This document shows, in pieces, positions 375-26,315 of a stretch of 64,000 nt of DNA. The notes beneath the pieces were generated by a model. The model was given only the letters and a program-made list of their open reading frames with translations, ran no database searches and was not told where the DNA came from. The position numbers and the translations under genes are program-made. The number at the start of each line of letters is the position of its first letter. Within the stretch, counting starts at the first letter, position 1. This DNA comes from a virus, in the IMG/VR virus record IMGVR_UViG_3300027899_000012, positions 26,243 through 90,242 of that record; one strand, given 5' to 3'.

Positions 375-1229
375 TCAACGGGGGCGTTCGGCGGGCCAGG
401 AAAAGCACACGGGATGCATCCCTGGCAAGCGAACCTTGACCACAACCGCCGTGCTCGGGCGGCCTCGGGGGTTGAGCCGCACTATCACCGGAGCGTCCAC
501 GGCAACCTCGCCGCCGAACAGAATAGCCATCTTCTTGGCTGTCGTTCCCACCTTCTGCTGCGTTTCCAGGGCGAACGCATCGGCGGAGGTGTGCGGGGAA
601 AAAGCGGCATCGCTCACGACGATGGGGTTGCAGGCCCCGGTGAGAAGGCAAGCCTTGCTGGTGATGCCCTGCAGGACGGGACTTCGCACGTCGTAGCCCT
701 GCCCGACGGCGTCTTTCAAAATACCGCCTTCGCGGAGAGCAAGATCGTTGGCGATTGCCATGCCTTGCAGGATCTGCTTGTTGTCCACGGCCGCCATGAA
801 CGAGTGCTCGATTTCGAGCGATTTGGCGATCGCACGCGCGTCGTTCTTTTTCACGTGCCACGTGAGTGTGGGGGGAAGGGGCAGTCTTTCCTCTCGCAGC
901 AGAAACGCCAGCCCGGTCGTTTCTTGAAACGCAACAAACTCTCGAACCAGCACGCGCACCAAGGCTTCGCTCACCCACCCGAACTTCCGACCCTCGTTTC
1001 GCGCGGCAGTCGTGAGAAACTCGATCGTGCTGTCCGTGCAATCGTGCAAGCGAAACGCGATGCTGCAGCCCCGTTGAACCACGAGCCGGATGATCTCCGA
1101 CGTGCTCACGTCTTTGATGCGATCGGCGCCGACAACCAGCATCAGGTCGCGGGCGTCGCTGGGCCCATGAGCGCTTCGAGAAACTTCGGAAACACGCTCT
1201 TCGGGTTCTGAATCGCGATCTGCTGACAT
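375..1229 (-). CDS. hypothetical protein
   Basis: Start MSADRDSE after GGAGAGG SD; protein-like composition. Confidence 0.7.
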   Translation of the reverse strand: MSADRDSEPEERVSEVSRSAHGPSDARDLMLVVGADRIKDVSTSEIIRLVVQRGCSIAFRLHDCTDSTIEFLTTAARNEGRKFGWVSEALVRVLVREFVAFQETTGLAFLLREERLPLPPTLTWHVKKNDARAIAKSLEIEHSFMAAVDNKQILQGMAIANDLALREGGILKDAVGQGYDVRSPVLQGITSKACLLTGACNPIVVSDAAFSPHTSADAFALETQQKVGTTAKKMAILFGGEVAVDAPVIVRLNPRGRPSTAVVVKVRLPGMHPVCFSWPAERPR

Positions 1230-3478
1230 AGCCACACCTCTCCGTCTGTAAGGGGACGCTTCGCTGCGCGAGCGAGCATGGGTTCGATGAACTTCGAGAC
1301 GCGCTCGGGAAGGCTTCCGGGCATCTTCCACCCATCGAGCGCAAGCTTCGCGGACACGCGCTGCAGTTCTGTGGCCTTCGGGTACTCTTTTCGGGTCCCC
1401 TCGGGTTGTGCGTCGAGCGCTCGATCGATGACGAATTGTTTCTGCAAAGCCGACGCGATGACGAGAGCTTCGATGGATCCGTCCACGACCAGGTACTGGA
1501 TGAGAACGGGAAATTGCTGCCCAATGCGATGGATTCGATCTTCCATCTGAAGCAGAACCCACGGCAGCCAGTCGCCTTCTGCGAAGACCATCAGGTCGGC
1601 CGCCGTGAGCGTGATGCCAACTCCGGCCGCGTGCATGCCCGCGATGAAAACTCGGATCTTCGGGTCGGTCTGGAAGCGATCAACGACGGCCTGCCGGTCC
1701 TTGACGGGCGTCTCGCCGTACAGGGAAACAGCCATCGGCCCGAACGCTTCTTCCAGGGCGCGAATCACCGATTGATGGTGCGCTGCGATGACGACCTTTC
1801 GAGGGGAAGCTTCCAGCGCATCGCGCACGTGTTCGACAACGAGCGGGACCTTCGCCAGGGCCGTGGCTTGGCGTTCCTTGGCGATGGCTTTCGCGTCGAT
1901 TCCCGACAGGTCGGTCTGAAGTCGAGTCAAGGCCTGCTCGAACGCGAAGGAATCTCCCACGGCCTCGGCGAGCATCGCTTCGAGAACGGTATCGCTCATG
2001 GACGGCACGAGCTTGAGCCAGGCTTCGCGCTCGGCGTCGGCTGCGTCGCGGATCTTGTCGCCGGACAGGGGAAGGATCTGGCGCGTCTTTTCGGGAAGGT
2101 CCGCTAGCACGTCTTTCTTGAGTCGGCGGATCATCAGGACCGAACGGAGCCGCTCCTGAAGCTCGTCCAGGTTGGTGGCCCCGTCGAAGTTCATAACCTC
2201 GATCTGCTTGCCCCGGCCGCCCTTCACGTAGATTTTGTCGCGCGTGGGACCGCAGTACCGGAACAGAAAGTCGCCTTCCTTGCGGAACACGTCGGGCGCG
2301 AGAACGCTGATCAACGCCCACAGGTTCCGGACGCGGTTCGGGATCGGGGTTCCGGTCAGGGCCAGGATTCGATTGGATCGCTGCGCGATTCCCAGGGCCG
2401 CTTCTCGCTTTCGGCCTCGTCGGACTCCGAGCACGCGTTCGGACGTTGACGCCTTGAGGTTCACGAACCGGTGGGCCTCGTCGAGGATCAAGAGGTCCCA
2501 GGTGGTGGCCATCAGGATCTGCCAGAGGTTTCCGGCGCGCTCGGCACCGGCGAGATTGTGCGATGTATCTCCGATGACATGCGTCCAGCCGAAGGGTTGA
2601 TCCTGCAGGATCACCTGCCCGACGCCTCCCGGCGGGACCCGAACGATGATCGGCCCAGGATGGCTGGCGAACACAAGCTCCCCGGGCGAATAGCCCACGG
2701 AGTACAGGACGCCCTCGGGAAAATCGGGTTTCGGAACGTCGGGCCACGCAACCCACAAGATGCGCTGGCGCTGATCGAGCTTCACCAGCTTGGCGAGGCG
2801 CTTGCCTTCCCTGTCCGGTGCGATCTTCGCGGAAACGCTTTCCGCGGTACGTGCACGTGTCGAAATCAGCCGCTCGGCATTTGTCACGCACCACTCGCGA
2901 CCCGGGGCCGGGTCGGGAACGTCCTGGCCTTCTTCGCAGAGAGTCACCCTGGGGTTGTGAGCGTCCCAGAGCATGATTTCCTTGCGCCAGTTGGCTTTGA
3001 GAGACGCCGGACAGATCACCAGGATCCGGGATGTCGCCGACATCGTGTTGGCAATCGCGATCGCCTCAATCGATTTCCCGATCCCCATCTCGTCGCCGAT
3101 CAGGACTCCCTTGCGGGTCGCGGCGTAGGCCACCGCCGCCAGCTGATACGGCCGCAGGACGCGTCCGGGGGGCAGGGGCACTCTCACCATCGCCGAATCG
3201 GCTCGGGACGCTTCCAGCTGCCCAGGCGTGCGAGCAACCAGGGCTTTCGCGGAGGGGCTCAACTCCAGGCCCGTCTTGGACGCAATAGTCGGGTCGCGGG
3301 TGAACCAGACGAACGACGGAAGGCCAGCTTCGCAGGCGGAGCATCTCGGGGGGCAGCGCTGATCGCCGGTGGACCAGTGGAAGACCATGCCGTCTTTCTT
3401 GAGCTTGGCGCGGAGGTCGGCGTCCGTGTACGGAACGAGCACGTAGAACAGGCTCGCCTTGGCTTCGATGACGCTCAT
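1142..3478 (-). CDS. SNF2/HARP (SMARCAL1-like) superfamily 2 helicase/annealing ATPase
   Basis: Motifs DEMGIGKS, ILVICPASL, LILDEAH, ALTGTP, AAGVGITL and QMEDRIHRIGQ; ATGA overlap with the upstream gene. Confidence 0.92.
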   Translation of the reverse strand: MSVIEAKASLFYVLVPYTDADLRAKLKKDGMVFHWSTGDQRCPPRCSACEAGLPSFVWFTRDPTIASKTGLELSPSAKALVARTPGQLEASRADSAMVRVPLPPGRVLRPYQLAAVAYAATRKGVLIGDEMGIGKSIEAIAIANTMSATSRILVICPASLKANWRKEIMLWDAHNPRVTLCEEGQDVPDPAPGREWCVTNAERLISTRARTAESVSAKIAPDREGKRLAKLVKLDQRQRILWVAWPDVPKPDFPEGVLYSVGYSPGELVFASHPGPIIVRVPPGGVGQVILQDQPFGWTHVIGDTSHNLAGAERAGNLWQILMATTWDLLILDEAHRFVNLKASTSERVLGVRRGRKREAALGIAQRSNRILALTGTPIPNRVRNLWALISVLAPDVFRKEGDFLFRYCGPTRDKIYVKGGRGKQIEVMNFDGATNLDELQERLRSVLMIRRLKKDVLADLPEKTRQILPLSGDKIRDAADAEREAWLKLVPSMSDTVLEAMLAEAVGDSFAFEQALTRLQTDLSGIDAKAIAKERQATALAKVPLVVEHVRDALEASPRKVVIAAHHQSVIRALEEAFGPMAVSLYGETPVKDRQAVVDRFQTDPKIRVFIAGMHAAGVGITLTAADLMVFAEGDWLPWVLLQMEDRIHRIGQQFPVLIQYLVVDGSIEALVIASALQKQFVIDRALDAQPEGTRKEYPKATELQRVSAKLALDGWKMPGSLPERVSKFIEPMLARAAKRPLTDGEVWLCQQIAIQNPKSVFPKFLEALMGPATPAT

Positions 3479-3879
3479 TTTCGAGCCTTTTTCTTCGTTC
3501 CGACGCCAGTGCCCTGGCATTTGGGGCACATGTTGGCTGCGGTCATGAAAGTGACGGCGCGAAACGAAGGATGGTTTGGATTTCTCCCCGTTCCCTGGCA
3601 GTGTGCACAAGGGGGCCCCTTCTGCTTTCGCAGGTGCGGAGTGAGAGCAGGCGGCGGCCGCTGGTTCTTGTCGTACACGGGAGGGGCGACGGGCTCCGGC
3701 GGGATCTCCTTCACGTCAAAGTCTTCCAGCGCCAGGTGGTATTTCGCGCACGCCTTCTGCCGTGCGTCGAACCACGTCTCCGCTTCCACGATTCCGATCG
3801 TGTTGATGAGCGTCAGGGGGCGGCCGTCTTGGGTTTTCGCGCTGGCAAACCTCTGAAAAACCTTGTACTTGCGAATCAT
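3475..3879 (-). CDS. small protein with DnaJ-type CxxCxGxG zinc finger
   Basis: CAHCQGTG and CPKCQGTG repeats; ATGA coupling at both ends. Confidence 0.75.
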   Translation of the reverse strand: MIRKYKVFQRFASAKTQDGRPLTLINTIGIVEAETWFDARQKACAKYHLALEDFDVKEIPPEPVAPPVYDKNQRPPPALTPHLRKQKGPPCAHCQGTGRNPNHPSFRAVTFMTAANMCPKCQGTGVGTKKKARK

Positions 3880-5481: not shown

Positions 5482-5678
5482 CGTGCGCTTCCCTTCTCAA
5501 GCGCCACGCGCTCGCGTTCGGAGGTTCGGATCGCGCTGCGAAGCTCGCGAAGGGCTCGCTGGCGGTTTCGCTCCCACCTCGGGTTGGCGTTCGGGCCCTC
5601 GGCCTCGATCTTGTCCACCTCGCTTCGCAGCCAGGCGAGCCCGCGATCGACCGCCTCTACGTTGAGCGCAAGGGCCAT
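5478..5678 (-). CDS. hypothetical protein
   Basis: MALALNVEA... after AAGGAGG SD. Confidence 0.65.
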   Translation of the reverse strand: MALALNVEAVDRGLAWLRSEVDKIEAEGPNANPRWERNRQRALRELRSAIRTSERERVALEKGSAR

Positions 5679-5680
5679 GG

Positions 5681-6058
5681 CTACGCGCCCTCCTTGGCGT
5701 TCACCCAGACGAGCGTTCCGCCCCTGGGAAGCTTCTGGGGCATGTCCTCGACGCGAAGGCCCATGGCCTCGGCGATCTTGGGCAACCACTCGATCCACAT
5801 CGCGTTGGTGACGCGCCCTTCGCCCGGATCCCCGTACCCGCGATTCAAGTCTTTGTGCCCGTTGTAAGACTCGCTGGTGGCGAGCATCCACTTGGGGCCG
5901 TAGTAGGACGAGCATCCCACGCCCGACCATCCGGTGTGCCCCTTGGTCTTGCACACGCACACGCCGCCCTTGCGAATCATCACGTCCCTGTCGGTTCCCC
6001 AATCCACGCCGCAGGAATGCCGGGGCAGGATCTCACGGTCTTTTTTCGTCCACGCCAT
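5681..6058 (-). CDS. hypothetical protein
   Basis: MAWTKKDRE...; TGATG coupling. Confidence 0.65.
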   Translation of the reverse strand: MAWTKKDREILPRHSCGVDWGTDRDVMIRKGGVCVCKTKGHTGWSGVGCSSYYGPKWMLATSESYNGHKDLNRGYGDPGEGRVTNAMWIEWLPKIAEAMGLRVEDMPQKLPRGGTLVWVNAKEGA

Positions 6059-6363
6059 CACATGCCTTCCAATTCTGCGAACGCCATGTCGCTGTAACCG
6101 GCCCACTCTTCCTCGCTCACCTCGCAGCGCTCGCGCGCCAGCTTGTCGAACTCGCGCTGTTGCTTCGCGCTAGTCGGTCGGCGGACGGGAACGCGCACCT
6201 CCGCTCCGCACGTGTCGCACCAGCACGTTGCCCAGTCTCCGTGCAGAAAGCACACGTTCTGCTTGCCTCCGCACCCGGGCTCCAGGCACGTGCCCACGGT
6301 TTCGCCCTTGATGCCCAGGGCGAACAGGGTTGCGGATGGCAGGCTGCGAACGACCGCGCTCAA
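6058..6363 (-). CDS. zinc-ribbon-like hypothetical protein
   Basis: TTG start overlapping the upstream stop; CLEPGC and CDTC. Confidence 0.55.
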   Translation of the reverse strand: MSAVVRSLPSATLFALGIKGETVGTCLEPGCGGKQNVCFLHGDWATCWCDTCGAEVRVPVRRPTSAKQQREFDKLARERCEVSEEEWAGYSDMAFAELEGM

Positions 6364-6992
6364 GTTGCGCCTCCCTTCCCACCGGTGGGTAGGAGCATCG
6401 CGCAAATGTACAGGTATCCGTAGGATGCGTTCGGGTTGGCGATCAGGCGCAACCCGGGGCGCTCGATCACGACAAGCCTACGCTCGTCCGGTCGAAGCCC
6501 AAGCTCCTTGATGCGCTTGCGCAGGATGGGAAGGCCCGTGTCGTTGCACCACTGGCACAGCTTGTGAAGCTCGGCCTTGGGGCCAGCGTTCGCTTGCCTG
6601 TCGTGCAGGATGTCAATCATCAGCCCGCCCCGGAAATCATCCTGCAGGATCGCTCGCGCTCCCCATGCCGCGACGCAGGGAACGTCCGGTTGCAGGCCCC
6701 AGGCGAGGCGTTCGATAGGCTCGGGAGCGGGCGCGGTATCGTTGCTCGGCTCGGGGCCGTTCTGATCGTCCTGCAGGTCCACCTGCGAGCACAACCACTG
6801 CCAGTACTCGGGGGTGGGCTCGCCTCCTGCCCGCACACGGATCGCGCACTCGGGCACGCCTTCCATGCACGGTTCGATAGCGCTCAGGCAAGTGTTTTCG
6901 TACTCGACAGCGCTTTCCACGTTCGAGAACCGACCCAGGTAATCCTCACGCGTTGAATCGCTCACAGTGGCCTGCCTTTCCGTGCCGCTCAT
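6360..6992 (-). CDS. hypothetical protein
   Basis: MSGTERQ...; ATGA coupling. Confidence 0.65.
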   Translation of the reverse strand: MSGTERQATVSDSTREDYLGRFSNVESAVEYENTCLSAIEPCMEGVPECAIRVRAGGEPTPEYWQWLCSQVDLQDDQNGPEPSNDTAPAPEPIERLAWGLQPDVPCVAAWGARAILQDDFRGGLMIDILHDRQANAGPKAELHKLCQWCNDTGLPILRKRIKELGLRPDERRLVVIERPGLRLIANPNASYGYLYICAMLLPTGGKGGAT

Positions 6993-13880: not shown

Positions 13881-15380
13881 TCAGCCGGCGGCCGGCGGGG
13901 TGGAGCCCGATCCGTTGCCTTCGGCAACGGGAGCGCGCGCCTTGAATTTACGCGGCCCGGCCTTGCCCACGCCAAGGGTTCGGAGCGCTTCGCGCGCCCC
14001 GTCAAGCTTTGCGGCGATGGCATCGCGAGCGGTTCCAGACTCCCGGACCGCTTGCCAGTCCGCAACCCCGTCCAGGGTCGCCTTGATTTGTGCAGCCACG
14101 GCCGCGAGCGCCGTATCGTTTGTGACGTCCTTGGCGGCGAGATCCTTGAGCCATCCCTGAAGGCTCGCGATACGGACGTCGCGGAACGCCTTCCGCTTGC
14201 CATCCTCGCCCGGTCGCAGCAGGGCGGTTAGTTCATCGAGCATGGTGCCCGCTTGCACGCGTGCGGCCGCCCGGATTTCGGCCCACGCTTCGCGCTGCTG
14301 TACTTTCATCGCTTCTGCATTTCGGGCCGCCATGGCCGTGTCCAGCCGCTTTGAACCCGTGAGATCCACCCATGTCGTGCTCGCCGTGTAGGACGCAACC
14401 GCGACCGATCGCGGCACGTAATCGGACGCGCGCCATACTCCCGGCAGTTCACGGATCCCGGTCATGGGATCGAGCCGTTCAACGACGTCCCGATCGTCGA
14501 TGACAGCCTGATCGTAAACGTTGCCCAGCGCTTGCACCAGGGCAGGGCGGGTGCTGGTGATATAGTCGGCGGCGAGCGCTTCAACGCGATCCATCAAGGC
14601 GATCGGCACGGGATAGATCCCGCGCAGCTGGGAAGGCAACGCAACGGACCGGATCGCGAGCCGGAACGAATTGTCAGCGGCTTCGATGCTCGCATGCTCC
14701 GGGCAAGCGCTCAGAAGCTTGACGGTCGTTTTTGTGGACTTTTTACCCTTACCGCTTGCCGCCGGATCGGCCGGCGCTTGCGCGTCAAGGCTCGTTACCC
14801 GCACGCGATCCGTGATATCGCGGCCCACGCCAAGGCGGCCGAAATCCGCGCGGAACCATACGACGTTCTTAAACGGATCCGTGATTTCCTTCGGCGCTTC
14901 TGCAAGGGCAGCGCGGAGCGCGGCATCCTCCGCCGTTTCACCGGTTGGGCCTTCGGCGGGGGGGGGCGCATCGCTGGACGGCTCCGCCGTCGCTTCGCTG
15001 GCAGCGGCCGCCACGGCCGCCGCGCCTTCGGCCTGTACCTCGATCGGGTTGCTCGCAACCCGGGCTGGCAAGGGTTCGGGCTCCGGGTCCGCTTCGGGTT
15101 GCGCGACCGGTTCGACCGGTTCGCCTACCGCGATCGATTCGAGCCATCCCACGATCGCGATCCGAGCATCCGCCCGGGTCCCCTTCGGCAGCGCTCCGAG
15201 CAACGCGGCCGCCGCGCCGAACACGGGCAGCGCGGCCGTTGGCATCGTAGCGGCTTCGCGCTCGATTTCTGCCACGATTTCGGCGCGCTTCGATCCGCCG
15301 TCGAAAGTCGCAAGCAACGCATTGGACAGAACCGCATATTGATCAGAGGTGAGGGAGTAACGGGTTGTGCTGGTATTCAT
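13881..15380 (-). CDS. large helical protein, DUF3150-like C-terminal region (tentative)
   Basis: Last gene of the AAA operon; Ala/Pro/Glu linker followed by a helical domain; family call is by resemblance only. Confidence 0.6.
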   Translation of the reverse strand: MNTSTTRYSLTSDQYAVLSNALLATFDGGSKRAEIVAEIEREAATMPTAALPVFGAAAALLGALPKGTRADARIAIVGWLESIAVGEPVEPVAQPEADPEPEPLPARVASNPIEVQAEGAAAVAAAASEATAEPSSDAPPPAEGPTGETAEDAALRAALAEAPKEITDPFKNVVWFRADFGRLGVGRDITDRVRVTSLDAQAPADPAASGKGKKSTKTTVKLLSACPEHASIEAADNSFRLAIRSVALPSQLRGIYPVPIALMDRVEALAADYITSTRPALVQALGNVYDQAVIDDRDVVERLDPMTGIRELPGVWRASDYVPRSVAVASYTASTTWVDLTGSKRLDTAMAARNAEAMKVQQREAWAEIRAAARVQAGTMLDELTALLRPGEDGKRKAFRDVRIASLQGWLKDLAAKDVTNDTALAAVAAQIKATLDGVADWQAVRESGTARDAIAAKLDGAREALRTLGVGKAGPRKFKARAPVAEGNGSGSTPPAAG

Positions 15381-15424
15381 GGCTTCGTCTGCTTTCTGCC
15401 CGGACACTCCGGGCGTTTGTGGGC

Positions 15425-15684: not shown

Positions 15685-16071
15685 CTACCTCCGGAACGTG
15701 AGCTTAACCGCCCCGTCGCTTTGTTTCACCGTGCTCGTATGCTTGAATCCGAACCGTTTGAGCGACACTTGGGCCGCCTTTGTGCCGTACGCCTGTCGGA
15801 TCTCGCCGGTCATGCGCTCGACGTCCGCTTCCGTCCCTTCCTCGATCCGGATCCGCGATCCGGACTGCCGAACGTTCAACGTTGACGTCCCCTTGCGAGC
15901 TACCAGCAAATCGCTGGCCAGCTTGACGTTCCGAGCATGGCCCCGAACGATCGCCCCTTCCTGGTACAGGGTGACGGTCCAACCGTCGCTTTCGAGCGCT
16001 TGCGCCAGCATGGCGCGATCCATCCCGTCCAGGTTGAGCCTGGAAGTCGTGTACTTTGTATCGCATGGCAT
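15685..16071 (-). CDS. DUF1257 (Ycf35)-like protein
   Basis: DRAMLAQALESDGW...IRQAYG...GF...DGAVKLTF pattern; genomic context. Confidence 0.6.
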   Translation of the reverse strand: MPCDTKYTTSRLNLDGMDRAMLAQALESDGWTVTLYQEGAIVRGHARNVKLASDLLVARKGTSTLNVRQSGSRIRIEEGTEADVERMTGEIRQAYGTKAAQVSLKRFGFKHTSTVKQSDGAVKLTFRR

Positions 16072-16073
16072 GA

Positions 16074-17723
16074 CTAAAAATCCTCGCCCGGGTCGGGAGT
16101 TTCCGTAGGGGGGGGCGCAGCAGGAGCCGGAGCGGCCGCCCGAAGCTTGCGACCGGCCGCCGGTGTCATCAGTGCGGCCGCAGACGGCGCGACATACGGG
16201 CGCCCCGTGGACGCGTCCGTATAGCTGTTTTCTGCGGCGATTCGATTGCGCTCGGCTACTTCCTTGCCCACCTTTCGCAAGCTTGCCACGTGCCGCTCCG
16301 CCGCTTGCTGGACGGTGATACCGTAATCGAGCGACTTCTGGATCGCCTGCACGATATCGCGACCCGTCCATCCCTGGTAGAGCGCTTGCGGCGGCCGCTC
16401 GGACGGCGGGAGCCCGAATTTGCGCAACTGGGCAAGCCAGATCCCTTCCAGCTGGGCAGCGTCGGGCACCCCAAAGTAGAACGTCTCAACCATGCGCGAT
16501 GTAAACTCTTCGCGAAATAGCGGGGCGCCGGTGTCATCGTGCGTCCGATTGCAGGTTGCGAACCATAGGTGCACGCCCCCGAACGCTACCAGCCGTGCGA
16601 ACGCTTGCTCCGCGTTTCTTTTTGACGCTCCGACATACTCGTTTTTTAGACTGTCCGTATCCAGCATGACGATCGGGCACTGGGCAAGGCTGGCCACAAC
16701 CCTGGCCAGCGTGGACTTGCCCACGCCCGGCAATCCGCTTGACAGGATCGTGATGTTCCGGAGCACGCGCGGATCCGGGTAAGCAAGGTGAGTGAGCAGC
16801 GACTTGAAAATCCCGGCCGTCGCTCCGCCGTCGCGCGCATCCGACCCGGATTGTACGATTTTTTCGGCTTCATCCAACAACACGACAAGGCGGATCGGGA
16901 TCCGCTTCACTAGATCCCCTGCCCAGTCCAGGACATAGGGTATGCCTGCGAAGTGTTCGGGCCGTTCGGGCTGATCAATCGTGATACCGGGCAGCGCGCC
17001 CAACATTTCGCGGGTCCGTGCGCCGACCACGTCAAGGTCAAGGCGTCCCGTGGCGCACCCCAGGGATCCAGCCTGCGACACTTGGAACCCCGTGAGCGAA
17101 GCCGTGGCCCCGCTTGCCGCCGCAATCGAGCGATCGTCCGCGGGAATGCTATTTTCCGCGCACAAGTCGCGAACGACCCCGGCGCGCTCCGCGTCCGATG
17201 GCAAGGGATCCCGGACAAGCAAGACGTCACCCTGTATCAGGGCAGGGATCCGACCCGGGTCGTTACCCAACCCAATGACCATGGATTCCGATCCGCCCGC
17301 ACAAAGCCAGTCGCGAAGGCGTAGCAGGGCGAGCGCAACCCCGGGTTTGTTCCAGACGTCGTCCGCGTCCCACCATACCAGGACGGACCGGGGCGGGATC
17401 CCGTATCGTCGGGTTGTTTCCGGGTCGATCCAGGGGCGCATAGCCTTGCACGCTTCAAGCGGCTCGCAAAGCATGCTCGGATCCTTCTCGCCGCAGAAGT
17501 CGCCGATCGAATCGCGCGCAGCGTCGTTCAAGGGTTCGAGTCCCCAGGTTGAGTCAAGGTGCCACATGGGGGGGCAGTCCAGACCGCGGGCCGCCGCGTC
17601 GTTGGCGATCGATTCTGCGATCGCCGATTCGGCAGCAGGCTGATCACCCGTGGCGAGGTACGCGATCGGAACGGATACGCCGTACGCTAGGACAATTTGA
17701 GCCGTGAATTTCGGGGCCGTCAT
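16074..17723 (-). CDS. Ycf46-like AAA+ ATPase with permuted motif order
   Basis: LLDEAEK (Walker B), GLPGVGKS (Walker A), EYVG pore loop, FATCN sensor 1, GWTGRDI lid; degenerate N-terminal AAA-like domain. Confidence 0.88.
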   Translation of the reverse strand: MTAPKFTAQIVLAYGVSVPIAYLATGDQPAAESAIAESIANDAAARGLDCPPMWHLDSTWGLEPLNDAARDSIGDFCGEKDPSMLCEPLEACKAMRPWIDPETTRRYGIPPRSVLVWWDADDVWNKPGVALALLRLRDWLCAGGSESMVIGLGNDPGRIPALIQGDVLLVRDPLPSDAERAGVVRDLCAENSIPADDRSIAAASGATASLTGFQVSQAGSLGCATGRLDLDVVGARTREMLGALPGITIDQPERPEHFAGIPYVLDWAGDLVKRIPIRLVVLLDEAEKIVQSGSDARDGGATAGIFKSLLTHLAYPDPRVLRNITILSSGLPGVGKSTLARVVASLAQCPIVMLDTDSLKNEYVGASKRNAEQAFARLVAFGGVHLWFATCNRTHDDTGAPLFREEFTSRMVETFYFGVPDAAQLEGIWLAQLRKFGLPPSERPPQALYQGWTGRDIVQAIQKSLDYGITVQQAAERHVASLRKVGKEVAERNRIAAENSYTDASTGRPYVAPSAAALMTPAAGRKLRAAAPAPAAPPPTETPDPGEDF

Positions 17724-17765
17724 TTTCTGTACTCGCTTTCTGCGGCGACACTCGCCGCACCAGGG

Positions 17766-17793
17766 AAGTTAGCACGTGCACCGCACGTGTCAA
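17766..17793 (-). promoter_or_regulatory. sigma70-type promoter of the AAA operon
   Basis: TTGACA-N16-TAACTT with an extended -10 TG. Confidence 0.6.
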
Positions 17794-17851
17794 CGGTAAA
17801 ACGTACGCGTGATTTTGGGGAAACCGTGAAACGGTTTCGAGGGTGGGGCGA

Positions 17852-18163
17852 TTATTCGAGCTTGGTCAGCAAATCCGCCAAGGGCGGACCGTCCAACGCG
17901 GGCAACGCTTCAAGGCGCACGTTGAACCCTAGATCGTGCTTGTCGCGAACGTTCAGCGCTTCCGTGAATGCTTCCGCTATGTTGCCCGATTGCAGCAGGG
18001 CAACGAAGCGATCCCATTTGACCGGATCGTCCAGGAGCGCGACGTCCAGAATGCAGGAAAGCGCTTCCCGTTGCGCGCTTTCCTCGGTTGGACAAAGCGC
18101 AACGTGCTGGATTTGTTCGTTGCGGTCCTGGAACACTACAACGAAGGCCACGGGCGCGTTCAT
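17852..18163 (-). CDS. hypothetical protein
   Basis: MNAPVAFVVV...; ATGA coupling. Confidence 0.65.
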   Translation of the reverse strand: MNAPVAFVVVFQDRNEQIQHVALCPTEESAQREALSCILDVALLDDPVKWDRFVALLQSGNIAEAFTEALNVRDKHDLGFNVRLEALPALDGPPLADLLTKLE

Positions 18164-18348
18164 TTGCCCCCCTTTGCCGCTCGGCTCCACGCAGCGGGAA
18201 GGAACCCACCACCGCGGATCCATTCGTCCATGGCCAGCACTAGCTCTGCTAGTCGATCGGCTACAGGTGTCATACCGCCCGAAGGTTTGCCGTCAACGAC
18301 GGCAGTGGCAAGGCGGACTTGTTCGGCTAGGTTCGCGTCCGGATCCAT
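18160..18348 (-). CDS. small phage-type protein (MDPDANL...DEWIRGGGFLPAAW)
   Basis: Resembles a recurrent small phage protein pattern. Confidence 0.7.
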   Translation of the reverse strand: MDPDANLAEQVRLATAVVDGKPSGGMTPVADRLAELVLAMDEWIRGGGFLPAAWSRAAKGGK

Positions 18349-25607: not shown

Positions 25608-26315
25608 TCAGCACCCTTCCGTCATCGCGTCCTGAATTTGTCGGCGTAGATCGTTCACCTGCGACATGAGCTTGTTGCGCTCATCGGCCGCCGCTCCGTA
25701 CCGGCGTTCGCTCTCGTCGAGGAGGTGTCGAAGTTCCTGCACGTCGGCGATTGCGGCATCGACCACAACCGGGGCGTTGCCTGCGCCGGGCTCCAAGGCC
25801 TCCCCGATCGCGCCGAACAGACTGCGCTGCGTTTGGACGAGGCAAGCGTAGCTGTGATCTCGCGCCGCGAACCCGTCTGCCATCTGCTTCTTGAGCGATT
25901 GCACGACCAAGGCATGATCCTTCTCGTGCTGCTGGCAAACATCGAGTTCCCTCATCAGCCGCTTGGCTACGCTGGTAAGAGTCTCGGTTGAAGTGCTGTG
26001 CAGAATCCCGTGCAACACGTCTGCCTCGTGCTGCTCCATCGGCTCAACATCAGGCATGGCGTGCACGAGTTCGTCGCGCCAGTCGGCGCGGAGCCTTTTC
26101 GCCTCGTCTTCCAACTTCACGAAGCGCTTCTCTCCTTTCATCAGCGCCCGATCGATGTGCTCGCGAAGCAGAGCGGCCATGGCCGTCACCTGCTCCTTCG
26201 ACTCCGCGCGAAGCTTCTCGGACATCGCTTCCACCTGGCGTTGCGCGCACTCCCCAGAGTGATTTTCCGCGCCCACGAGCACCTTTCCGCAGTACGCGCA
26301 CGAGAAGGTTCCCAT
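25608..26315 (-). CDS. coiled-coil protein with N-terminal zinc finger
   Basis: CAYC...H...C; GGAGG SD. Confidence 0.7.
   Translation of the reverse strand: MGTFSCAYCGKVLVGAENHSGECAQRQVEAMSEKLRAESKEQVTAMAALLREHIDRALMKGEKRFVKLEDEAKRLRADWRDELVHAMPDVEPMEQHEADVLHGILHSTSTETLTSVAKRLMRELDVCQQHEKDHALVVQSLKKQMADGFAARDHSYACLVQTQRSLFGAIGEALEPGAGNAPVVVDAAIADVQELRHLLDESERRYGAAADERNKLMSQVNDLRRQIQDAMTEGC

Follow-up and report, generated by a model that had tools for sequence, protein, structure and literature searches.

The 64,000-nt window analysed here (positions 26,243 to 90,242 of the IMG/VR virus record IMGVR_UViG_3300027899_000012, a record of 90,242 bases with an estimated completeness of 91%) carries on its minus strand, at 16074..17723, an open reading frame (ORF) of 549 amino acids (aa) coding for a Ycf46-like AAA ATPase, the active domain of which reads in the chain order Walker B (D284 E285), Walker A (K336), pore loop, sensor 1 (N392) and R410. 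Few molecular machines have been studied as closely as AAA+ motors, in which the order of the motifs is taken to be invariable; true Ycf46 proteins, both plastid and chromosomal cyanobacterial, have the canonical motif order. We regard the altered order as a real and conserved swap of two blocks that preserves the canonical three-dimensional active site, with a probability of about 0.85. A natural segment swap, as proposed in an initial reading made from the sequence alone, is supported by profile mapping, conservation, the count of strands in an AlphaFold model, and covariation.

Motif order in the ATPase

The motifs were read in the translated ORF. VVLLDEAEK occupies residues 280-288 (nt 16860-16886) and is followed by GLPGVGKS, a Walker A motif of the form GxxxxGK[ST], at residues 330-337 (nt 16713-16736), then by EYVGAS at residues 362-367 (nt 16623-16640), LWFATCN, which contains the sensor-1 residue N392, at residues 386-392 (nt 16548-16568), and FTSR at residues 407-410 (nt 16494-16505). 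This is the order given in the sequence-only reading; the range of 16540-16895 in which that reading had placed the motifs holds all of them except FTSR, which falls 35 nt outside. The Walker B residues (VVLLDE, 280-285) are present, but at a non-canonical position in the chain, and the single P-loop match in the whole protein is at residue 330. The parts of the gene are as follows.

16074..17723, minus strand: whole ATPase gene, 549 aa, a tandem (type II-like) Ycf46-like AAA ATPase with a permuted active domain
16992..17723, minus strand: N-terminal degenerate AAA-like domain (D1 equivalent), residues 1-244, without a P-loop and with canonical strand order
16896..16991, minus strand: linker and helix alpha-0, residues 245-276 (DSSP helix 262-274), feeding the Walker B strand and not strand 1
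16764..16895, minus strand: transposed block B, residues 277-320, with the Walker B strand 277-283, D284 E285, the pore-loop-2 region and helix 301-314
16578..16763, minus strand: block A, residues 321-382, with strand 1, Walker A G330-S337 (K336), helix 1, strand 2, pore loop 1 (Y363 V364 G365) and helix 2
16224..16577, minus strand: block C, residues 383-500, with the sensor-1 strand (N392), R410, strand 5 and the helical lid with R455
16077..16223, minus strand: C-terminal tail, residues 501-549, a Pro/Ala-rich end modelled with low confidence

The match to Pfam AAA (PF00004) is limited to residues 327-377, corresponding to profile positions 2-52 of 131, as would be expected if the chain departs from the canonical order past the second helix; the collinear succession of Walker A, pore loop 1, Walker B and sensor 1 that a full-length PF00004 match requires is not present. 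Since domain models such as Pfam AAA assume a fixed order, the family is seen by them only as a 50-residue fragment. Searches of PHROGs and NCBIfam likewise returned only partial matches in the P-loop region, with no dedicated family and no full-length match.

Exchange of two blocks relative to canonical-order proteins

Compared with PDB sequences, the single protein sequence was already non-collinear on Cdc48. Profile A2, built from 149 sequences, matched the D2 domain of Cdc48 (6chs_H) in three pieces: profile positions 302-360 fell on Cdc48 residues 528-586 (41.1 bits), positions 259-299 on residues 584-627 (13.9 bits; conditional E 8e-7, independent E-value, or i-Evalue, 0.14), and positions 361-448 on residues 630-722 (24.8 bits). 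On Cdc48 D1 the three pieces fell in the same order, overlapping each other.

Six relatives with the canonical order were found among annotated plasmids and phages, namely those of a Pseudanabaena galeata plasmid (WP_281009472.1), a Ca. Manganitrophus plasmid (WDT73634.1), a Thermovibrio plasmid (WP_013524972.1), a Treponema succinifaciens plasmid, an Arthrobacter plasmid, and Rhizobium phage L338C (gp050). Against each of them the family profile A3 was divided into four pieces (N-domain, A, B and C) with A and B exchanged, and every piece was individually significant in these small searches. For the Pseudanabaena protein the values were 3.5e-22 for the N-domain, 9.2e-16 for A, 1.7e-7 for B and 7.6e-18 for C, with B, the Walker B block, placing profile positions 261-301 on residues 320-359 (i-Evalue 1.7e-7). 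The N-terminal part of the profile, starting at positions 4-81 and ending at 251-254, matched the N-domains of all six canonical relatives with i-Evalues from 2.4e-18 to 2.8e-38. The mapping into four pieces with A and B exchanged therefore identifies the change as an exchange of two adjacent blocks, one of about 58 aa bearing Walker A and one of about 40 aa bearing Walker B, the rest being collinear. Such a change is equivalent to circular permutation of the inner A-B segment with the ends of the domain left unmoved.

Conservation of the order and support for the assembly

An initial word-based search yielded four relatives with 89-27% identity, and the order was common to all five sequences. 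In an exhaustive phmmer search 1210 representative clusters passed E<=1e-3, of which 780 also passed E<=1e-10, with lengths of about 500 aa in nearly all, and a profile search yielded 2290 proteins at E<=1e-10 among the 8000 candidates scored. The alignment used below consists of 333 distinct sequences of 400-650 aa, left from 347 after removal of three because of length and of eleven duplicates, and includes the best 150 and 120 matches of the phmmer and profile searches; the mean column identity in the aligned family is 23%. Two P-loop fragments (L003 and L004) from a search for related loci were unrelated and were set aside.

The homolog search proposed in the sequence-only reading thus returned the same order throughout: the permuted order is present in 333/333 aligned relatives, and in every one the stretch from helix 2 to sensor 1 is free of Walker-B-like motifs, in agreement with the claim that this motif is missing from its normal place. 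No intermediates, or forms with extra blocks, were found among the 333 sequences. Spacing within the domain is tightly kept, with 25 residues between GGL and D284 in 297/333 sequences, 29 residues between K336 and G365 in 326/333, and 28 residues between G365 and N392 in 292/333. A strict regular expression for Walker B lying 30-60 residues ahead of Walker A was matched by 78 of 80 viral loci and by 75 of the 77 ATPase ORFs from loci in bacterial metagenome-assembled genomes (MAGs). The same permuted order is found in gp103 of the Tunturiibacter phage Tunturi_3, an isolated phage, which matched profile A3 collinearly over positions 3-486 (2.6e-145). Its recurrence in aligned relatives, viral loci, MAG loci and Tunturi_3 puts the order far beyond chance.

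The same counts bear on a rival explanation, in which faulty assembly or a frame error in a metagenomic contig produced the order. The contig is indeed metagenomic, and the one sequencing run found to hold the stretch, a DNA run from a freshwater metagenome of 2017, is probably the source sample and so is not independent; no RNA runs holding the stretch were listed in the sequencing-run search. The Logan assembly of that run, made independently, covers 16153-18300 with 0 differences, all motifs included, and is base-identical to the record across them. Its contig does break at 16153-16158, with a six-base overlap and no differences on either side, but this point falls within the C-terminal tail of the ATPase, and the order is repeated across many independent assemblies. 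We consider misassembly, which the sequence-only reading had named as a possible source of the pattern, to be excluded in practice, and the probability of an artefact of either kind to be negligible.

Predicted structure of the active domain

An AlphaFold model obtained with a 149-row alignment has a mean predicted local distance difference test (pLDDT) value of 93.4 and a predicted template modelling score (pTM) of 0.87; in the last four ten-residue blocks, from residue 511 to the end, pLDDT drops to 73, 59, 69 and 61. Residues 1-244 form an alpha/beta domain with a lid and without a P-loop. This first, D1-like domain possesses a complete strand set of its own, and its lid ends near residue 242. 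In the active domain the modelled strands are 277-283 (Walker B), 323-330, 351-354, 384-391 and 413-417, and there is no sixth; the helices are 262-274, 287-294, 301-314, 336-346 and 364-381, followed by the lid after strand 413-417. The active domain falls one strand short of five unless the transposed strand is included.

Comparison with canonical AAA domains, which the sequence-only reading had suggested as a check, placed model residues 1-500 on p97 (7lmz_C, 204-763) in VIA-align with Z 18.7 and a root-mean-square deviation (rmsd) of 3.7 over 404 aligned residues, and residues 244-500 on p97 D2 (3cf0_A, 465-763) with Z 15.3 and rmsd 2.9 over 205. Vps4 also gave Z 15.3 in VIA-align, spastin also matched the active domain, and Foldseek placed the model on D1 and D2 of p97, Cdc48 and Rix7 with E of about 1e-12. 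In the match to p97 D2, 205 of the 257 model residues in the range were aligned and about 50 were not; the unaligned remainder would be about the size of one 44-residue transposed block.

Covariation and the position of the transposed strand

Mean-field direct coupling analysis (DCA) was performed on residues 245-500 of the 333 sequences (effective number of sequences, Meff, 238), and the top 150 of 31,626 pairs were considered. The Walker B strand 277-286 and the sensor-1 strand 382-392 share seven of these pairs, which form a parallel ladder (278-382, 279-382, 280-386, 281-387, 284-390, 286-389 and 279-388), and ten pairs join helix 301-314 to helix 364-381; these are the two most populated blocks of pairs between elements. 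Helix 301-314 also couples to pore loop 1, and helix alpha-0 couples to alpha-1 and strand 5 (264-417, 268-343 and 264-339). The best partner segment of the Walker B strand is 380-392, with seven pairs against 0.52 expected (Poisson P 1.3e-6), and pair 286-389 displays a size-compensating change from I/A to G/M. When the clade of the window protein was removed, the ladder was kept, with eight pairs in the remaining 300 sequences; in two column-shuffled controls it was represented by 0 and 1 pairs, and the top scores were 1.77 and 1.73, as against 5.65 observed.

Couplings between strands were seen only for 5-1 (two pairs), 1-4 (one), 4-Walker B (seven) and Walker B-2 (one, from strand 277-286 to residue 354). 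They coincide precisely with the neighbour pairs of a 5-1-4-3-2 sheet, which puts the transposed strand in the position of strand 3, and from the model and the alignment together the active domain appears to contain a five-stranded 5-1-4-3-2 sheet with Walker B as strand 3. A different arrangement can be envisaged, in which the transposed strand has taken a non-canonical place, such as an edge, giving a new sheet order and a rearranged active site, and sequential structure aligners are blind to the position of a transposed block. The couplings, however, place the Walker B strand between 382-392 and 350-355, no coupling of this strand to strand 1 or strand 5 occurs among the top 150 pairs, and helix 301-314 pairs with helix 364-381 and pore loop 1 as a canonical helix 3 would, and we find such a rearrangement quite improbable.

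The covariation data bear also on the possibility, raised in the sequence-only reading, that the upstream DEAEK belongs to a separate degenerate domain far from the P-loop, for example to the tail of the N-terminal pseudo-AAA domain, which would leave the active domain without a Walker B. A degenerate N-terminal AAA-like domain does exist, and the Pfam match covers residues 327-377 only. That domain, however, is complete in strands before the lid ends; within the analysed range strand 277-286 couples to the sensor-1 strand and to residue 354, and not to N-domain elements; D284 and E285 are conserved as strongly as K336; and block B is homologous to the Walker B block of the canonical relatives. 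A separate domain is, on this evidence, highly improbable, and we retain the exchange of two blocks inside a single active domain.

Active site and proposed mode of action

The fold would be unchanged by the exchange: in the 5-1-4-3-2 sheet the transposed strand would fill position 3, flanked by the sensor-1 strand and strand 2, and from there D284 and E285 should neighbour the P-loop (K336) and sensor 1 (N392). What changes is three loop connections and nothing else: strand 3 now follows alpha-0, strand 1 follows helix 3, and strand 4 follows helix 2. The end of helix 3 carries a conserved motif of the M-Q-D type.

The claim that the catalytic motifs look intact is borne out by the alignment. 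Position 284 is D in 325/333 sequences and E in the other eight, E285 is E in 332/333, and G330, K336, N392 and R410 are each invariant (333/333), as is S/T at position 337. Pore loop 1, mostly Leu-Val-Gly in the family, is Tyr-Val-Gly in the window protein. ATP would be bound and hydrolysed by means of K336, D284/E285, N392 and R410, and the ATPase may assemble into a ring by analogy with its structural neighbours of the Cdc48/Vps4 type; a prediction for a complex of three copies of residues 245-500 with three ATP gave a score of 0.00 and a mark of 0.42, which bears neither way on oligomerisation. A protein substrate would then be remodelled, or threaded through pore loop 1 (Y363-V364-G365), probably in joint action with the co-transcribed DUF1257-like and DUF3150-like proteins described below.

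A permuted fold could also serve as a catalytically dead scaffold, in which the conserved residues are kept for nucleotide binding only. In keeping with this, catalysis is deduced here from conserved residues, and the clade of the window protein lacks the arginine at position 409, which is R in 300/333 sequences. Against it stand the catalytic Glu, the sensor-1 Asn, the P-loop Lys and R410, all of them invariant or nearly so in a family with such a low mean column identity, and the loss of R409 is in 33 of 33 cases accompanied by an Arg at 455, which looks like compensation and not decay. We hold a dead scaffold to be unlikely, and prefer a block swap that leaves a working active site.

Several points weigh against the reading adopted here. 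ATP hydrolysis, ring assembly, substrate handling and cooperation with partners are all inferred, and the first of the two usual arginines is absent from the window protein, which has S409. Taken alone, the Walker B piece is weak against PDB sequences (i-Evalue 0.14), and it is significant only against close canonical relatives in small searches. The placement of D284/E285 by K336 is drawn from strand count, homology and covariation. The Meff of 238 is modest for DCA, couplings can be inflated by shared ancestry, and only some of the ladder pairs (286-389 and 281-387) score above the shuffled maximum of 1.77. Finally, the canonical forms number only six in the tree described in the next section, for which each block was aligned by itself.

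The two arginine positions follow a strict either/or pattern: R409 without R455 is found in 300/333 sequences, and R455 without R409 in the other 33, including the window protein (S409/R455). Positions 409 and 455 (nt 16494-16505 and 16359-16361) form the top DCA pair, with the score of 5.65. We take R409 and R410 to be arginine fingers of the second region of homology, as in p97, and lid position 455 is presumably the site used as sensor 2 by other AAA+ clades. The pattern looks like the relocation of one putative nucleotide-contacting arginine from the arginine-finger motif to the lid.

Origin and distribution

A tree was built from the six canonical rows and 50 permuted ones, of which ten were chosen and the other forty sampled randomly from the 333; blocks were aligned separately and then concatenated, with 476 of 696 columns kept. 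A single branch parts the permuted from the canonical forms (Shimodaira-Hasegawa-like approximate likelihood ratio test, SH-aLRT, 100), which fits a single origin of the permuted form. The most economical route would pass through an A-B-A-B stage, made by tandem duplication of the two blocks, from which the leading A and the trailing B were later lost; the swap probably took place once, in a lineage already holding the AAA/DUF1257/DUF2997/DUF3150 module.

Among species-representative genomes, a relative is encoded in 543 of 600 candidate stretches. The best 80 of these stretches are from MAGs, mostly of Acidobacteriota (Bryobacterales, Terriglobia), with Armatimonadota, Nitrospirota, Myxococcota and Planctomycetota also represented. 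Some of the MAG copies are on megabase contigs, and some genomes have several copies. Neighbours in the ESM Atlas selected by features are mostly viral clusters (Uroviricota), and the structural neighbours there include a cyanobacterial ycf46 cluster (template modelling score, TM, 0.67), to be regarded as a lead only.

In one Acidobacteriota MAG, CAWHRX01, the permuted ATPase is found on at least six contigs, including contigs of 3.65 Mb and 2.1 Mb, which suggests several prophage or mobile-element copies per genome.

Relation to known systems

The closest known counterparts are the canonical Ycf46-like ATPases, such as those of Manganitrophus, Pseudanabaena, Thermovibrio and phage L338C. They are similar in length (about 480-560 aa), have a homologous degenerate N-domain and homologous Walker A, Walker B and sensor-1-to-lid blocks, and have similar gene neighbours (DUF1257, DUF2997 and DUF3150 in Manganitrophus; DUF1257 and DUF2997 in Pseudanabaena), but in them Walker A comes before Walker B, whereas in the family of the window protein the two blocks are exchanged. 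The type II classical AAA proteins Cdc48/p97/VCP, Rix7 and NVL resemble the window protein in the fold of both domains, and all three blocks are homologous at the level of motifs; in comparison with Cdc48/p97, the window protein lacks the N-terminal substrate-adaptor domain, its first domain has no P-loop, and the order of A and B is reversed.

Circularly permuted P-loop GTPases (cpGTPases) include the YRG/YlqF/YawG proteins, with the order G4-G5-G1-G2-G3, and cpRAS, with the order G3-G4-G5-G1-G2 (PMC2430557). They are likewise a natural and conserved re-ordering of nucleotide-binding motifs in which the fold is kept. However, cpGTPases permute the whole TRAFAC-class domain, whereas here the swap concerns inner adjacent blocks of an AAA domain of the ASCE (additional strand, catalytic glutamate) division. 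The window protein does not belong with them: its motifs are those of AAA and not of GTPases, and alpha-0 and the part from strand 4 to the lid keep their places.

Full-text literature searches, which left subscription journals and supplements outside their scope so that an earlier description is possible, returned no permuted AAA domain, and the order of this ATPase is undescribed in the literature found on DUF1257/DUF2997, DUF3150 and Ycf46, including a passage of PMC10954446. We narrowly favour the view that this is the first recognised natural re-ordering of an AAA/ASCE core, represented by a large, mostly phage-borne family with hundreds of members, in which the Walker B unit is N-terminal to the P-loop, and which arose once from canonical Ycf46-like ATPases within the same four-gene module.

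A conserved block swap would mean that the ASCE core tolerates rewiring of the strand bearing the catalytic glutamate, and would provide evidence that, in evolution, duplication and loss can permute a domain from within and not at its ends, in a large and mainly viral family that is under-described by profile-based annotation. If the reading is correct, nature offers a matched pair, a canonical and a permuted motor with the same partners, suited to asking how the connectivity around Walker B, pore loop 2 and the inter-subunit-signalling helix affects ATP-driven remodelling. Tunturi_3 and Tunturiibacter psychrotolerans are a cultured phage-host pair with a permuted member; with the same partners occurring alongside either motor, this pair makes both the rewiring and the role of the Ycf46-type module open to experiment.

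Gene neighbourhood

Three genes follow the ATPase on the same strand.

15685..16071, minus strand: downstream gene 1, 128 aa, DUF1257-like, with its start codon 2 nt past the ATPase stop codon
15425..15676, minus strand: downstream gene 2, 83 aa, a small protein in the DUF2997 position, without a Pfam match
13881..15407, minus strand: downstream gene 3, 508 aa, DUF3150-like, the window copy being without a Pfam match

The 128-aa protein matches Pfam DUF1257 at E 0.0028 and 18.3 bits, under the cut-off of 22.2, and a hidden Markov model (HMM) seeded from it matches the annotated DUF1257 proteins of Pseudanabaena (1.4e-8) and of Tunturi_3 (2e-8); on the strength of these profile matches the 128-aa family is DUF1257-like. 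The HMM of the 83-aa family reached annotated DUF2997 proteins only at E 0.021 and 0.35. In Tunturi_3, gp102 and gp101 score above the Pfam cut-offs for DUF1257 and DUF2997. Four DUF3150-like relatives were compared with Pfam DUF3150, two scoring above the cut-off, one below it, and one giving no match; the HMM of this family matches the annotated DUF3150 protein of the Ca. Manganitrophus plasmid at 5e-35.

Near the ATPase in the 80 viral loci, relatives of the 128-aa protein were found in 69, of the 83-aa protein in 36, and of the 508-aa protein in 76, the last being on the same strand and within 4 kb of the ATPase in all 76. In the 49 MAG loci with full flanks the corresponding numbers were 21, 2 and 41. 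The Ca. Manganitrophus plasmid carries an AAA gene of canonical order together with DUF1257, DUF2997 and DUF3150; the same module therefore exists with either motor. DUF1257 and DUF2997 are also annotated alongside the canonical ATPase gene of Pseudanabaena.

The DUF3150-like protein is longer in the window (508 aa) than at other loci (280-486 aa), and from the translation the excess appears to be an N-terminal extension rich in Ala, Pro and Glu. The Ca. Manganitrophus plasmid (CP114554, locus 5623-6509) has a pair of successive ORFs that overlap, one carrying the annotation DUF3150 and the other hypothetical. Both match the DUF3150-like HMM (5e-35 and 5e-36), and the record may contain a split or frameshifted gene. 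On the Pseudanabaena galeata plasmid (NZ_CP112875, 130747-139162) the module also includes an Hsp70 family protein, an “ATP-binding protein” and a 734-aa hypothetical protein, a composition that hints at a chaperone-linked system. Elsewhere in the window, an 822-aa ORF at 1142-3610 on the minus strand matches the PHROG DNA helicase family phrog_62 (E 4.4e-89), marking a phage replication region.

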